Positions 39,860 to 44,955 of a stretch of 64,000 nt of DNA are shown here, piece by piece. Numbering within the stretch: the stretch's first letter is position 1; every line of letters begins with the position of its first letter. This DNA comes from an uncultured bacterium (GTDB taxonomy: Bacteria > Pseudomonadota > Alphaproteobacteria > SMXQ01). The DNA is taken from NCBI GenBank assembly GCA_965369885.1, contig CBDUSV010000001.1, positions 603-64,602 on the forward strand, written 5' to 3'. The notes below the pieces were generated by a model, which was not told the origin of the DNA, searched no databases, and saw only the letters and a program-made list of their open reading frames with translations. The position numbers were made by a program, and so were the translations under genes.

Positions 39860-40474
39860 TCATTTCTTGGCGCCGTCGGCCGCCCGCGCGCCCCAGAATT
39901 CCCCCTTGCGCAGCCAGCCGCTATGTCCCGCGGCTTGGATTTCGCACCAGCTTTTCTCGCACCGCAACAGCTCGGCGACCACGCCGGGTTCGAGCCGCGC
40001 CACGGTTTTGGCACCGGCGGCGGGTTCGCTGTGCAATAAGCGCACCAGCCCGGTCACCAGCACGGTGCGCCGGCCCGATAGCATGGAGCGGTGGACCCAA
40101 CCGACGGTTCCCTGCCAGTCGCGCACTTTGCGCCAGGTGTCGAATTCGGCCACGATCTCGATGGGGAAGCTGCGGCGTTTGAACACCCATTCGACGGGAT
40201 AGCGCACCCCGGGGCCGGTGCGCACATTGACCTCGGCCGCGCGCAGGGAGGCAAAACGCGGCAAGGGCCGGCCCGAGCGTGTGCCCTCAGGCTTGGCCAG
40301 GGGGGGCTTGGCGGCGGGCCTTGGCGGGGGCTTGGCGGTTTCGGATTGGGCACTCTCGGCCACCGCCCCTGCCGCCCCTGCCGTCGCCAATGCCCCGACG
40401 GTCATGACCGCCAGGCCCGCCCCGGCCAAAAAGACCATCGGCGCCATCCGCCATGGAGCCCGGTCAGACAACAA
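39860..40474 (-). CDS. Bacterial SH3-domain protein, secreted/membrane-anchored
   Basis: The protein has an N-terminal hydrophobic segment, a Pro/Ala-rich linker and an SH3b-like C-terminus (…VNVRTGPGVRYPVEWVF…). Confidence 0.5.
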   Translation of the reverse strand: MLSDRAPWRMAPMVFLAGAGLAVMTVGALATAGAAGAVAESAQSETAKPPPRPAAKPPLAKPEGTRSGRPLPRFASLRAAEVNVRTGPGVRYPVEWVFKRRSFPIEIVAEFDTWRKVRDWQGTVGWVHRSMLSGRRTVLVTGLVRLLHSEPAAGAKTVARLEPGVVAELLRCEKSWCEIQAAGHSGWLRKGEFWGARAADGAKK

Positions 40475-40940
40475 TCATGGCCCCGTGTTTGGATGCGTCG
40501 GCGAGAAAACTGACGATACCGCCCTCGGCATAGGTGATGTCGCCGCGCAGATCCGCCACCGTTAAGTCCATGGCGCGCAGACCCATCTCGCAGACCATGA
40601 ACTTGACCTCGAAGCCGATGCAGGCGTCTAGCAACTCATCGAAGTTGGCGATGCCGCGGGATGCAAAGTGGCGGTCGGCCGCGGCGGCGGTTGCGCCACC
40701 GTCGGCGATGGCTTCGGTCACCGGGGCATCGTGCCAGCCCGGGGTGCTCCCGTCAGCGGCCTTGGCGAGGGCGCGGATCGCCGCCATGGTGAAGAACAGG
40801 GTCACCGGCCGGTTCACCGCGGCTGCTGCCGCGGCCATGGCCAGGGCGTAATGGACGCGGTGATAGTCACCGGAAAACACCACGACGGAAAGCTTGTCCG
40901 GGCTCGCCTGGCCCCCGGCGCCGTCTTGCTCAGCCGCCAT
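40464..40940 (-). CDS. DsrE/DsrF-like (YrkE/TusD-like) putative sulfur-relay protein
   Basis: The protein has a DsrE-fold and a candidate active Cys in the FMVCEMG motif. The internal ATG at 40940 was chosen; it overlaps the moeB stop by 11 nt, suggesting translational coupling. Confidence 0.5.
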   Translation of the reverse strand: MAAEQDGAGGQASPDKLSVVVFSGDYHRVHYALAMAAAAAAVNRPVTLFFTMAAIRALAKAADGSTPGWHDAPVTEAIADGGATAAAADRHFASRGIANFDELLDACIGFEVKFMVCEMGLRAMDLTVADLRGDITYAEGGIVSFLADASKHGAMIVV

Positions 40941-41733
40941 GTTGGGAAAGATCCTTGATTGTCGGGGCCTCTCCGCACAGCGGACAGGCGGGGTCGGGCC
41001 TGAGCCGCACCTTGCGGAAGGTCGTGCCCAGCGCATCGTAGATCAACAGCGATCCCGAAAGGCTGTCGCCGATGCCAAGCAGTTCCTTGAGCACCTCGGT
41101 GGCCTGCACCGAGCCCACCGCGCCGGCGACGGCGCCCAGCACCCCACCCTCGGCGCAGGTCGCAATCAGGCCCGGCGGCGGCGGTTCGGGGAACATGCAG
41201 CGGTAACAGGGATGGTCCCCGCCGAGGTGGGCCTTGAAGGTCGAAACCTGTCCCTCGAAGCGCAACAGCGCCGCCGCCACCAGGGTCTTTTTGGCCAGAT
41301 AGCAGGCGTCATTGACCAAAAAGCGGGTTTCGAAATTGTCGCTGCCGTCGGCGATGACATCGTAATTCTCTAACAACTCAAAGGCGTTTCCGGCGTCAAT
41401 GCGGGTCTGGTGGGTGACCAGGCGGATCTCGGGATCGATCGCTTCGATGGCCTGGCGCGCGCTTTCGACCTTGGCGGTGCCGATGCGTTCGGTGGCGTGG
41501 ATGATCTGGCGCTGGAGATTCGAGAGATCGACCACATCGTCGTCGACAATGCCAAGGGTGCCGACACCGGCGGCGGCAAGATACAACAACAAAGGCGAGC
41601 CCAGCCCGCCGGCGCCGATCACCAGGACGCGGGAGCGCAAAAGCTTAGCCTGGCCCTCACCGCCGACCTCGGAGAGGATGATATGGCGGGCATAGCGCTC
41701 GATCTGATCGGGGCGAAATTCCATGGCGTTCAC
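40930..41733 (-). CDS. moeB: Molybdopterin-synthase adenylyltransferase MoeB (ThiF/MoeB/HesA family)
   Basis: The protein has a Rossmann motif (VLVIGAGGLGSP), paired CxxC zinc motifs (PCYRC … CPLCG) and no rhodanese domain. The start is a GTG. Confidence 0.75.
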   Translation of the reverse strand: MNAMEFRPDQIERYARHIILSEVGGEGQAKLLRSRVLVIGAGGLGSPLLLYLAAAGVGTLGIVDDDVVDLSNLQRQIIHATERIGTAKVESARQAIEAIDPEIRLVTHQTRIDAGNAFELLENYDVIADGSDNFETRFLVNDACYLAKKTLVAAALLRFEGQVSTFKAHLGGDHPCYRCMFPEPPPPGLIATCAEGGVLGAVAGAVGSVQATEVLKELLGIGDSLSGSLLIYDALGTTFRKVRLRPDPACPLCGEAPTIKDLSQHGG

Positions 41734-41742
41734 GTCGCGCGG

Positions 41743-42750
41743 TCACAGATTGTTGAACAGCGGCGTCGACAGGTAACGCTCGGCGAAGGACGGCAGGATG
41801 ACGACGATGGATTTCCCCTCCATGTCGCCCCGCGCGCCGATCTCAATCGCCGCCGCCAGTGCCGCGCCGGACGAAATCCCCACCGGCATGCCTTCCAACA
41901 GCGCCGCCTTGCGGGCGGTGGCGAAGGCGGTCTCGTTGCCGATGCGTACGACCTCGTCGATCAGCTCGGTGTTGAGGATCTTGGGCACGAAACCGGCGCC
42001 GATGCCCTGGATCTTATGGGGACCGGGCAGGCTGCCCGACAGCACCGAACTGTCTTCCGGCTCGACGGCGATGATCCTGACCCCGGGCCGGCGTGATTTC
42101 AAGACCTCGCCGACACCGGTCAAGGTGCCGCCGGTGCCGACGCCCGACACCAAGGCATCGACATTGCCATCGGTGTCGCGCCAGATCTCCTCGGCGGTGG
42201 TGCGGCGGTGAATCTCGGGATTGGCCGGGTTCTCGAACTGCTGAAGGGTGACCGCATCGGAAAGTTCCTTGCGCAGGGCCTCGGCGCGGGCGACCGACCC
42301 GGCCATGCCCTGGGCGGCGGGGGTGAGCTCCAGCTCCGCGCCCATCAGGGCCAGCATCGTGCGGCGTTCCACCGACATACCTTCCGGCATGGTCAGGATC
42401 AGCCGGTAGCCCTTGGCGGCGCAGACGAAGGCCAGCGCGATGCCGGTGTTGCCCGAGGTCGGCTCGATCAGCACCGTATCAGGGCCGATACGGCCATCGG
42501 CCTCGGCGGCCTCGACCATGGCGAGACCGATGCGGTCCTTGACCGAACCCAGGGGATTGGCGAATTCGAGCTTGCCCAGAATCTTGGCCTGGCAGCCATC
42601 CAACGCCGACATCTTTTTGAGATACACCAAAGGCGTATTGCCGATGGTCTCAAGGATGCCGTCATAGATGCGCCCCCGGCCAAGGGCGGCATTGGCACCG
42701 CCGCCGGGGCGGTTGACGAGGCCCTCATCGGCCGGATTCGACGCCATCAC
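41743..42750 (-). CDS. cysK: Cysteine synthase A (O-acetylserine sulfhydrylase)
   Basis: The protein has the PLP-lysine motif (SVKDRIG) and the GTGGT loop, with a ~27-aa N-terminal extension. The exact start is uncertain. Confidence 0.85.
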
Positions 42751-43233: not shown

Positions 43234-43238
43234 GGGTG

Positions 43239-43712
43239 TTACATCCCGCCGGTGCCGGTGCCGGTGGAGCCGAAGCCGCCGCTGCCGCGCGCGGTCTCCG
43301 GCAATTCGCCAACCTTCTGCCATTGCACCCGGCTCACCGGGGCGATCACCATTTGCGCGATGCGCAGCCCGCGGCTGACGGTGAAGGGCGCGTCCCCGAG
43401 ATTGGCCAGGATGACGGCGATCTCGCCGCGGTAATCGGCGTCGATGGTGCCCGGTGAGTTGAGGACGGTGACGCCGGATTTTGCCGCCAGGCCGGAGCGG
43501 GGCCGAACCTGGGCCTCGAAACCCGACGGCAGGGCGATGGCGACGCCGGTGGGGATCATGGCGCGCGCCCCGGCCTCGATGATGACGTCGCCCGCCACCG
43601 CCGCCAGCAAATCGACCCCGGCGCTGTCTTGGGTGGCATAGGCGGGCAGCGCCAAGCCTTCGGCGTTGGCGAGCTGGCGAATGGGGACGGAAATTTCTTC
43701 AAGCGCGGGCAC
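43239..43712 (-). CDS. dut: dUTP diphosphatase
   Basis: The translation shows the five dUTPase motifs (…SAGVDL…, …RSGLA…, …[10 protein letters not shown]…). Confidence 0.9.
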
Positions 43713-43713
43713 G

Positions 43714-44955
43714 TTACTGCTTTTGCGCCAATGTGGCCGAGATCTGGCGCACCAGCCGGTCGGCGACGGCGTCCTTGGTCATTTTGGGCCAGCTTTCGGC
43801 CTTATCACCGGTGATCAGATGGACAACATTATGGTCGCCGCCAAAGGTGCCGGCGGCTTCCGAGACGTCATTGGCGACGATCCAGTCGCAACCCTTGATG
43901 CCCAGTTTGGCGCGGCCATTGGCGATGACGTCCTCGGTCTCGGCGGCGAAGCCGACCACAAGGCGCGCCCGGCGGTTGCCCGGCTCGGAAAGCCGCGCCA
44001 GGATATCGGGGTTTTCCACCAACTCGAGGGTGGCCGGCGTGGATTTGCCGCGCCGGGTCTTCTTGATCTTGCGGGCTTCGGTGTGTTTGGGGCGCCAGTC
44101 CGAAACCGCCGCCGCGCACACCGCGACATCGGCGGGCAGCGCCTTCTCACAGGCCGCCAGCATGTCGGCGGCGGTAACCACATGCACGGTTTCGACGCCC
44201 AAGGGGTCGGGCTGGCTGACCGGTCCCGAGACCAAGGTGGTGTCTGCGCCCAGGCGGTGCAGCGCCCGGGCGATGGCATGGCCCTGTTTGCCCGATGACC
44301 GGTTGGCGATGAAGCGCACCGGATCGATGGCTTCATGGGTGGGGCCGGACGTGACCAGGGCGCGGCGGCCCTTCAACGGCGTCTTGCCGGGGGCGGTGTC
44401 TTTGAAATAGTCCCCGATCGCGGCCAGGATGTCTTCGACCTCGGCCATGCGGCCCTCGCCGGTCTCGCCGCAGGCCAGATCGCCGGTGGCGGGGCCGATG
44501 CGCATCACGCCCAGGGTCTCCAGGGTCTCTAAGTTGCGCCGCGTCGCCCCATGGTTCCACATGGCCTGGTTCATCGCCGGCGCCACCAGCACCGGGCTGT
44601 CGGCCGCCAACAGCGCCGTGGTGGCCAGGTCCGAGGCCAGGCCCATGGCCATCTTGGCGAGGAAATCTGCGGTCGCCGGCGCCACCACCACCAGATCGGC
44701 TTCCCGCGCAAGGCGGATATGGCCCATCTCGCTTTCATCGGTGAGCGAGAACAGCTCGGAATAGACCTTTTGCTCGGAGAGCGCCGAAACCGACAAGGGC
44801 GTGACGAATTCGGCCCCGGCCTTGGTCAGGATGACCCGCACCTGGCAGCCTTGGTCGCGCAGGCGCCGGATCAGATCCAGGCACTTGTAGGCGGCGATGC
44901 CGCCGGTGATGATCAGCAGAATATGGCGCTTTTCCAACACGTTATGATCCAGCAT
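43714..44955 (-). CDS. coaBC: Bifunctional phosphopantothenoylcysteine decarboxylase / phosphopantothenate--cysteine ligase
   Basis: The 413-aa protein has an N-terminal flavoprotein domain and a C-terminal DFP ligase domain. Confidence 0.9.

Follow-up and report, generated by a model that had tools for sequence, protein, structure and literature searches.

A conserved alphaproteobacterial coaBC-dut-rrf2-cysK-moeB-dsrE2-like gene string with a possible DsrE2-type sulfur donor for MoeB and a predicted CysK-docking Rrf2 regulator

The subject of this study is a string of seven genes on the minus strand of a 64,000-nucleotide stretch of DNA (the window) from an uncultured alphaproteobacterium of the lineage SMXQ01 (GenBank assembly GCA_965369885.1, contig CBDUSV010000001.1, positions 603 to 64,602), in which coaBC, dut, rrf2, cysK, moeB, a dsrE2-like gene and a gene for an SH3-domain protein follow one another. 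The string is very probably a mosaic, composed of the housekeeping genes coaBC and dut, an insertable rrf2-cysK module, an inseparable moeB-dsrE2-like pair and an incidental SH3 gene. The best explanation of the whole, which we regard as evenly poised between true and false, is a single vertically inherited operon of conserved modules, in which a CysK-sensing repressor would gate the consumers of cysteine sulfur. A more specific proposal, in which the rhodanese-less MoeB and the DsrE2-like protein join in a stoichiometric complex, with the latter as the dedicated persulfide donor of the former, while the operon is gated by a CysK-docking Rrf2 protein, is put forward as a tentative one. The observations behind this picture are the identities of the genes, their conservation, the coupling of moeB with the dsrE2-like gene, an invariant cysteine in the DsrE2-like protein, an invariant C-terminal tail in the Rrf2 protein, and the co-occurrence of a promoter element with rrf2. 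The seven genes, in the order of transcription, are as follows:

43714-44955, minus strand: coaBC, phosphopantothenoylcysteine synthetase/decarboxylase (TIGR00521, 414 bits against a cut-off of 219.7; Pfam domains Flavoprotein and DFP)
43239-43712, minus strand: dut, dUTPase (NF001862, 201.5 bits against a cut-off of 103)
42787-43233, minus strand: rrf2, CymR-like Rrf2-family regulator without iron-sulfur (Fe-S) ligands (PF02082, 106 bits; C-terminal RLDFTI)
41743-42750, minus strand: cysK, O-acetylserine sulfhydrylase A (TIGR01139, 424.5 bits against a cut-off of 350.95)
40930-41733, minus strand: moeB/thiF-type adenylyltransferase, E1-like (PF00899, 264 bits; two CxxC motifs; no rhodanese domain)
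40464-40940, minus strand: dsrE2-like gene (PF13686, 40.6 bits against a cut-off of 25; Cys117 in VCEMG)
39860-40474, minus strand: SH3 gene, exported protein with two SH3_4 domains (PF06347 twice; hydrophobic N-terminus)

The identities that an earlier, sequence-only reading of the window had given to these genes all hold at the level of family assignment in profile searches, and the packing of seven minus-strand genes that it described is confirmed by the open reading frames (ORFs) and their junctions. The gap between coaBC and dut is 1 nucleotide (nt) and that between dut and rrf2 is 5 nt; rrf2 and cysK are 36 nt apart when counted to the GTG start of cysK, or 39 nt to the next ATG, and the GTG start of moeB lies 9 nt after cysK. 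The moeB stop and the dsrE2-like start overlap by 11 nt (ATGGCGGCTGA), and the dsrE2-like gene overlaps the SH3 gene by another 11 nt if the latter starts at a TTG. The start codons are uncertain for two genes, i.e. moeB and the SH3 gene: in the database, the MoeB copy P0121 begins with the ATG at 41724, so that the cysK-moeB gap widens to 18 nt, and the SH3 overlap becomes a 16-nt gap if the ATG at 40447 is the true start. Antisense ORFs of up to 408 amino acids (aa) also overlap the operon (42208-43434 and 43666-44298 on the plus strand, and similar ones). They were rejected as genes, for they fail the third-position GC filter that real genes pass, and such ORFs are a usual artefact at 65% G+C.

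Relatives of the DsrE2-like protein are encoded in 537 species-level genomes. Its database homologs number more than 700, and the few with a named organism, Magnetospirillum and Magnetovibrio among them, all come from Alphaproteobacteria. For locus statistics, the window proteins were mapped onto the 80 best loci, which come from different species. The usual gene order among these is ubiB-coaBC-dut-rrf2-cysK-moeB-dsrE, and its recurrence in most of the 80 loci is far above chance; the seven-gene packing is conserved across hundreds of Rhodospirillales-type alphaproteobacteria. Both ends of the segment are visible in 66 loci, which form the basis of the presence counts of rrf2 and cysK: both genes occur in 55 of them, rrf2 alone in one, cysK alone in two and neither in eight, and these eight loci still hold coaBC-dut-moeB-dsrE. 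Similarly, L081, a contig of complete-genome scale, carries ubiE-ubiB-coaBC-dut-moeB-DrsE_2 with no rrf2-cysK. When counted by the position of cysK, the gene lies directly 5' of moeB in 57 of the 66 loci, and it is absent from the other nine, which retain the moeB-dsrE pair. The SH3 gene lies at most 150 nt from dsrE in only 6 of 50 loci and is otherwise 0.6-5 kb away, separated from it by unrelated genes on the opposite strand (2-hydroxyacid dehydrogenase, pabB-like, class IV aminotransferase and others); no sulfur-related gene was found between dsrE and the SH3 gene in these other loci.

It is from these counts, with rrf2-cysK absent in some loci, moeB-dsrE kept and the SH3 gene drifting, that the mosaic make-up of the string follows. 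The coaBC-dut genes are a housekeeping pair at a fixed ubiE-ubiB-coaBC-dut site, and the SH3 gene is a lineage-specific neighbour outside the conserved unit, not the member of an operon in a sulfur context for which it had been taken. The notion of a cysteine synthase embedded in a sulfur relay likewise has to be given up, since rrf2-cysK is separable and is missing from eight of the 66 loci that keep moeB-dsrE. Judging from the protein sequences, rrf2-cysK would be tied to the rest by regulation, through a CysK-binding tail of the Rrf2 protein, and not by the transfer of sulfur to CysK. The linkage to coaBC, which had been called notable, is real in itself, and coaBC-dut-moeB represents an inherited chromosomal neighbourhood.

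The pairing of moeB with the dsrE-like gene is almost without exception. The former lies directly 5' of the latter in 79 of the 80 loci, and the 80th locus ends at a contig edge. In 60 of 78 loci the dsrE gene begins before moeB has ended, the overlap being mostly 11, 14 or 8 nt, and in 16 further loci 0-16 nt separate the two genes, so that an overlap or a distance of at most 16 nt is found in 76 of the 78; this closeness is a signature of translational coupling. Furthermore, the pairing is old. Divergent DsrE relatives with 32-37% identity are still encoded 3' of moeB, the two genes overlapping by 4 nt, and in one of these cases cysK lies upstream. More distant relatives (E-values of ~1e-19 to 1e-21 against the profile; P0363 and P0347) adjoin tusA, which encodes a classical sulfur-relay partner. 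A joint action of the DsrE-like protein and MoeB, which the sequence-only reading had suggested, gains support from this coupling in nearly all of the 78 loci and from its persistence at such low identity.

On the other hand, the DsrE-like protein is not of the TusD/YchN type that had been considered, but of the DsrE2 type (PF13686), with 3PNX and 2QS7 as its nearest structures. It scores 40.6 bits with PF13686 (DrsE_2) versus 26.8 bits with the classical DsrE family PF02635. An AlphaFold2 (AF2) model of the protein has a predicted local distance difference test score (pLDDT) of 89, and a Foldseek search with this model returned 3PNX with a template modelling score (TM) of 0.76 and 2QS7 with a TM of 0.73-0.83, with 2HY5 (E = 1.8e-4) and 1JX7 ranked far under them. 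A profile search of the PDB retrieved 2QS7 at E = 2e-12 with Cys117 aligned. This residue is the cysteine of the motif FMVCEMG whose conservation had been predicted; it is indeed invariant in 29 aligned homologs, among which Cys107 is nearly invariant, and it occupies the active-site position of the family, aligning with the conserved cysteines of 2QS7 (FACSTTM) and 3PNX (YACQLSV). The family comprises 1203 representatives at 50% identity, 56 of them at E <= 1e-30, and the best 150 of the 1203 are all small, single-domain proteins, none of which is longer than 217 aa. By analogy with its solved relatives, the protein is probably trimeric. Its C-terminus (...LFI/...IVV) was considered as a CysK-binding tail and rejected, this end being the last beta-strand of the fold. 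The label 'peroxiredoxin family protein', which the Joint Genome Institute (JGI) attaches to homologs, misfits a DsrE2 fold with one active cysteine.

The closest known relatives of this protein are DsrE2B (Mcup_0682, and SSO1126 of Sulfolobus, a trimer, PDB 2QS7) and Swol_2425 (PDB 3PNX), which share with it PF13686, the fold and the aligned cysteine, although their identity to the window protein is only 20-21%. Their genes, to which no function has been assigned, sit in dsrE3A-dsrE2B-tusA/hdr clusters of sulfur oxidisers, whereas those of the window clade accompany moeB in a non-dissimilatory, housekeeping context; no tusA, dsr or hdr genes were found in the window or in the 80 loci. The TusBCD and DsrEFH complexes belong to the same superfamily and carry a persulfide on a conserved cysteine, and TusBCD exemplifies a biosynthetic use of it, i.e. 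tRNA thiolation. They are distant from the window protein, however, which is encoded by a single gene without TusB, TusC or TusE partners and would not form a heterohexamer; genes for TusBCE or DsrFH partners are absent from the window and from the 80 loci.

MoeB of the window consists of a PF00899 domain (residues 14-251) with GAGGLGS as the GxGxxG nucleotide loop and two CxxC motifs, PCYRC and ACPLC, which align with those of E. coli MoeB. Its earlier description as a MoeB-type enzyme with CxxC pairs and no rhodanese domain is upheld, as Pfam finds PF00899 alone; the rhodanese domain is likewise absent from its 120 closest homologs, which contain PF00899 only. The protein passes the MoeB subfamily model NF004281 (301.6 bits against a cut-off of 266) and misses both the moeB equivalog TIGR02355 (222 against 376.55) and the thiF equivalog TIGR02356 (251.8 against 275.25). 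Its best NCBIfam matches are rhodanese-fused MoeB, SAMP-E1 and MoeZ, and with the top profile, the rhodanese-fused MoeB PRK08762 (387 positions), it aligns at positions 121-375 only, which is the E1 part. It is about equally close to E. coli MoeB (1JW9, 189 bits), Uba4 (180 bits) and ThiF (178 bits), and is annotated as MoeB by the Prokaryotic Genome Annotation Pipeline (PGAP). The most likely view of this gene is that of a vertically inherited housekeeping E1. Contrary to the sequence-only reading, this status would not make the finding fall, as its interest lies in the DsrE2-type partner.

A C-terminal extension with a cysteine in the last nine residues (e.g. ...HGSTAHACG before the stop) is present in 34 of 79 (~43%) MoeB orthologs, including those of loci L003, L004, L012, L019, L022, L045 and L060, and the window MoeB, whose 3' end lies at 40930-40960, ends in ...SQHGG without such a tail. 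A mobile cysteine or selenocysteine tail of this kind might act as a persulfide carrier, and marine metagenomes have MoeB among their listed selenoprotein families (PMC1088965). A read-through of the moeB stop as selenocysteine was considered and rejected, as the 20 codons after the TGA in the window fall within dsrE, read in a different frame, and no consistent U-G tail occurs across the loci. Also rejected was a candidate MoeB-DsrE fusion, P0126 (398 aa), which turned out to be a stretch of MoeB with an internal duplication, from a metagenomic contig of 2.2 kb, and is most likely an assembly chimera.

The formation of protein thiocarboxylates by an E1-like enzyme needs a protein persulfide, which comes either from a fused rhodanese domain, as in MoeZ, MOCS3 and Uba4, or from a separate carrier, such as ThiI, TusA and YnjE in E. 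coli. In the mechanism that we propose, MoeB would adenylate the C-terminal glycine of MoaD/ThiS-type carriers encoded elsewhere, and Cys117 of the DsrE2-like protein would hold a persulfide, loaded by a cysteine desulfurase, possibly via TusA; the DsrE2-like protein would then pass the sulfur to the MoeB-bound acyl-adenylate to yield the thiocarboxylate. Its role would equal that of the fused rhodanese of MoeZ, MOCS3 and Uba4, and that of ThiI, YnjE and TusA in E. coli. Both the persulfide chemistry and MoeB as its recipient we infer from the gene context; by analogy, the DsrE2-like protein is a credible sulfur donor to MoeB, with chances only slightly short of even. No paper linking a DsrE-type protein with MoeB or ThiF was found in the literature.

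MoeZ/MoeZR of Mycobacterium, human MOCS3 and yeast Uba4 possess the same E1 domain and need the persulfide beside the adenylation site. These enzymes have the rhodanese fused to them, whereas the window encodes a separate, co-translated protein of the DsrE2 fold, for which the corresponding function is suggested by analogy. The MoeB-MoaD (IscS/TusA/YnjE) and ThiF-ThiS (IscS/ThiI) systems of E. coli rely, as here, on an E1 that stands alone and binds zinc through two CxxC motifs, and receive their sulfur from trans-acting carriers. In E. coli, rhodanese or TusA proteins whose genes lie elsewhere act as these carriers, while in the window a gene of the DsrE2 type overlaps the moeB stop.

The second module of the operon consists of rrf2 and cysK. 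The Rrf2 protein has a single cysteine, as have 111 of its 120 closest homologs (the remaining nine have two), so that the Fe-S ligands known from IscR, NsrR and RirA are missing. Its C-terminus reads RLDFTI, and a D[F/Y]xI ending is shared by all 59 syntenic orthologs, in the form of LDF[T/S/I/N]I or close variants; all 120 closest homologs terminate in Ile, with a D[F/Y]xI tail apart from one DLTI and one NYSI. The AF2 model of the protein is confident to about residue 133, with a pLDDT of <50 for the final residues, as would be expected of a tethered flexible peptide. The public names of the orthologs are 'Rrf2 family transcriptional regulator' and, for some in the JGI annotation, 'iron-sulfur cluster assembly transcriptional regulator'; the latter label is misleading for a protein with no Fe-S ligands and a tail of the CysK-docking type.

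It has been shown that the tails of CysE and of Staphylococcus aureus CymR bind the active site of CysK via a C-terminal Ile, and that the CymR pentapeptide YMFYI does so at nanomolar affinity (bioRxiv 10.1101/2024.09.19.614015). The native tail of Mycobacterium tuberculosis CysE is DFSI, which has been crystallised in CysK1 (PDB 2Q3C; PMC9547175). The tail of the window Rrf2 protein (DF[T/S]I) is closer to this mycobacterial DFSI than to the MFYI of CymR. By analogy with these tails, we infer that it binds the active site of CysK, and we predict with good confidence that the Rrf2 protein is a CysK-binding, CymR-like regulator. In this prediction, the flexible LDF[T/S/I]I tail of the Rrf2 repressor would insert into the CysK active site, and the occupancy of CysK, for which O-acetylserine would compete, would set the repressor activity. 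With the CymR-CysK system of Bacillus subtilis and S. aureus it shares an Rrf2 protein without Fe-S ligands, a C-terminal aromatic-x-Ile and a context of cysteine metabolism; unlike CymR, it is alphaproteobacterial, and its gene directly precedes cysK inside a coaBC-dut-...-moeB operon. A search of the literature for a CymR-like regulator in Alphaproteobacteria retrieved no paper. As for its presumed partner, the translation shows the TSGNTG loop and the QQFENPAN motif, and CysM models stay below their cut-offs (262 bits against 394), so on sequence grounds the enzyme is a canonical, sulfide-using CysK and not CysM.

Upstream of coaBC, the window and most of the other loci show a -35 hexamer CTTGyr, a spacer of ~17 nt, a -10 hexamer CTAnnTT and, directly after it, a conserved 25-nt element. 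In the window these are:

45004-45009, minus strand: candidate -35 hexamer CTTGTA (a consensus match only)
44981-44986, minus strand: candidate -10 hexamer CTAGAT, 17 nt after the -35 hexamer (a predicted assignment)
44956-44980, minus strand: conserved 25-nt element of the type TTAATCACAGATTTCATTCGTAAATT, with the pattern TAAyCACA-N9-11-CGT(T)AAAT, a candidate Rrf2 operator

The element is imperfectly palindromic and matches both strands, and the window contains a single copy, against a chance expectation of 0.8 loose matches. Of the loci with rrf2, 36 of 50 have the element, versus one of eight loci without rrf2, that one being a doubtful case (Fisher p ~0.002, uncorrected for phylogeny). 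Taken together, the element at 44956-44980 is likely the operator of the Rrf2 protein, as far as its sequence and distribution indicate. The distance between dut and rrf2 is 0-12 nt in most loci, and consensus scans for terminators and promoters inside the operon gave nothing above chance; transcription therefore probably starts upstream of coaBC. The operator would overlap the transcription start at the coaBC promoter, and with the operator in this position the whole operon would respond to the cysteine supply, i.e. coaBC, dut, cysK, moeB and the dsrE2-like gene would come under cysteine-dependent control. CoaBC would consume cysteine directly, and MoeB with the DsrE2-like protein would do so via the transfer of persulfide to MoaD/ThiS-type carriers. 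The spacer between rrf2 and cysK was considered as an alternative site of the operator and rejected, as it varies in length and contains no common motif across the loci. No Rfam family, riboswitches included, matched the window at gathering thresholds. With regard to the left half of the element, which also fits a DnaA box, a strict regular expression matches 28 of 59 upstream regions against 1.8 expected in shuffles, and in L081 dnaA lies ~6 kb upstream of coaBC.

Several results weigh against the explanation outlined above. With regard to the regulator, the Rrf2 protein reaches 70.3 bits with the CymR equivalog NF047409, whose cut-off is 195, slightly below the 79.9 bits that it obtains with the IscR model TIGR02010 (cut-off 207.55); it thus lies outside the curated CymR family by sequence, and probably works like CymR nonetheless. 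The operator assignment rests on a co-occurrence that is uncorrected for shared ancestry, and the left half of the element (TTAATCACA, or TTATCCACA in some loci) agrees with the consensus of a DnaA box as well. Moreover, the element abuts the annotated ATG of coaBC and leaves no room for a Shine-Dalgarno sequence, so either the annotated start or the promoter assignment may be wrong. With regard to the sulfur transfer, the DsrE2-like protein scores 33.1 bits with the NCBIfam DsrE2 equivalog NF047629, far below the cut-off of 210. The sequence-only reading was right that no carrier gene is nearby: the 64-kb window contains no plausible small ORF ending in GG for a MoaD/ThiS/CysO-like carrier, the only GG-ending ORFs being MoeB itself and one ORF of low third-position G+C, and a TusA motif and a cysteine desulfurase gene are also absent from it. 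No MoeB-DsrE fusion protein occurs among the 120 closest MoeB homologs or the top 150 of the 1203 DsrE representatives. The cysteine tail on ~43% of the MoeB orthologs implies that the delivery of sulfur may differ across the clade. Finally, DsrE2B of Metallosphaera was inert to six sulfur compounds and took up no thiosulfonate in vitro (PMC4175335).

The inertness of DsrE2B is compatible with another role of the DsrE2-like protein, in which it would assist MoeB in a redox or resolving function, reducing an acyl-disulfide or protecting the zinc/cysteine sites by means of Cys117 and Cys107. Such a partnership would explain the tight coupling of the two genes just as well as sulfur donation does; it would make use of the two conserved cysteines, and the many MoeB orthologs with a C-terminal cysteine tail of their own could hold the persulfide themselves. 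We nevertheless consider it unlikely, as the members of the DsrE family with an assigned function (TusD, DsrE and DsrE3A/B/C) carry sulfur or thiosulfonate, Cys107 is only nearly invariant, and a thioredoxin-like motif is lacking.

A comparably small chance is given to the possibility that moeB is a specialised second copy for a thiocarboxylate pathway, such as a CysO-like route to cysteine or homocysteine or a route to a thio-metabolite, in which the DsrE2-like protein and CysK would be its partners. The position of cysK directly upstream of moeB in 57 of 66 loci speaks for it, as does the failure of the protein to pass either the MoeB or the ThiF equivalog cut-off. The CysO-CysM-Mec-MoeZ system of M. 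tuberculosis shares with the window cluster the genetic association of a cysteine synthase with an E1-like enzyme; the window cluster, in contrast, lacks a CysO-like carrier and a JAMM protease, its flanking genes are unrelated, and its synthase is CysK, not CysM. Against a specialised copy stand the position of moeB at the fixed ubiE-ubiB-coaBC-dut housekeeping site in all loci, the retention of dsrE by moeB where cysK is absent (eight loci and L081), the canonical, sulfide-using character of CysK, the lack of a carrier or JAMM protease gene nearby, and the name MoeB given by PGAP.

Slightly more doubtful still is a mere synteny of moeB and dsrE, in which the DsrE2-like protein would act elsewhere, e.g. 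in the handling of reactive sulfur species. It is true that the whole neighbourhood is strongly syntenic, including genes as unrelated as those of rubrerythrin and DUF3501, and that detoxification has been proposed for some DsrE groups. However, the overlap of stop and start codons, seen in 60 of 78 loci, and a pairing that survives at 32-37% identity argue against it, while the SH3 gene and other neighbours drift apart. That the DsrE2-like protein hands its sulfur to CysK for a persulfide-dependent cysteine synthesis, the second option of the sequence-only reading, is the least likely of these alternatives and highly improbable, because dsrE, although in the same operon as cysK in most loci, always lies 3' of moeB and never of cysK, the pair outlasts the loss of cysK in nine of 66 loci, and CysK uses free sulfide, with an active site that is the predicted dock of the Rrf2 tail.

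To our knowledge, the sulfur supply of rhodanese-less MoeB/ThiF enzymes has been settled for a few model organisms only, and we know of no function assigned to the soluble DsrE2-type proteins since they were defined in 2014. The coupled moeB-dsrE2 pair is a testable candidate for both, and some carriers of the cluster, e.g. Magnetospirillum, are genetically tractable. The parts of the operon all come from known families with mechanisms that are known in kind, so that it represents a recombination of known parts. What appears to be new is the obligate genetic partnership of a DsrE2-type protein with a rhodanese-less MoeB throughout a large lineage, an alphaproteobacterial Rrf2 protein that resembles CymR in its predicted CysK-docking tail, and the joining of both modules with coaBC-dut under one candidate operator. 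If the DsrE2-like protein is the sulfur donor to MoeB, this would be the first function for a soluble DsrE2-type protein and a third solution of sulfur delivery, beside the fused rhodanese and ThiI/TusA/YnjE. If the predicted regulation holds, the insertion of sulfur into coenzyme A (CoA), the molybdenum cofactor (Moco) and thiamine would be tied transcriptionally to the availability of cysteine in a large alphaproteobacterial lineage. The invariant tail of the Rrf2 protein would extend regulation of the CymR-CysK type, known from Firmicutes, to Alphaproteobacteria, and would correct the labels in the databases.

Some features of the surroundings are also of note. The distance between ubiB and coaBC is mostly ~150-250 nt in the other loci. 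In the window an insert at 45068-48514, which looks lineage-specific, lies between the two genes and comprises an acyl-CoA-dehydrogenase-like flavoprotein (45068-46270), a small membrane protein (46455-46844, plus strand) and an FAD aromatic-ring hydroxylase (46823-48514). On the other side of the string, a convergent and syntenic set of plus-strand genes at 36802-39850 encodes a Fur-family regulator, rubrerythrin, a 459-aa Cys-rich protein and a DUF3501 protein. The 459-aa protein has no Pfam match at E <= 0.001, and its counterpart in L081 has a weak CCG match. Rubrerythrin is unusually conserved, with 84-96% identity across loci compared with 50-70% for its neighbours. The stops of DUF3501 (39850) and of the SH3 gene (39860) converge 9 nt apart, and a small hairpin at 39843-39859 is the sole terminator-like feature between these two genes.

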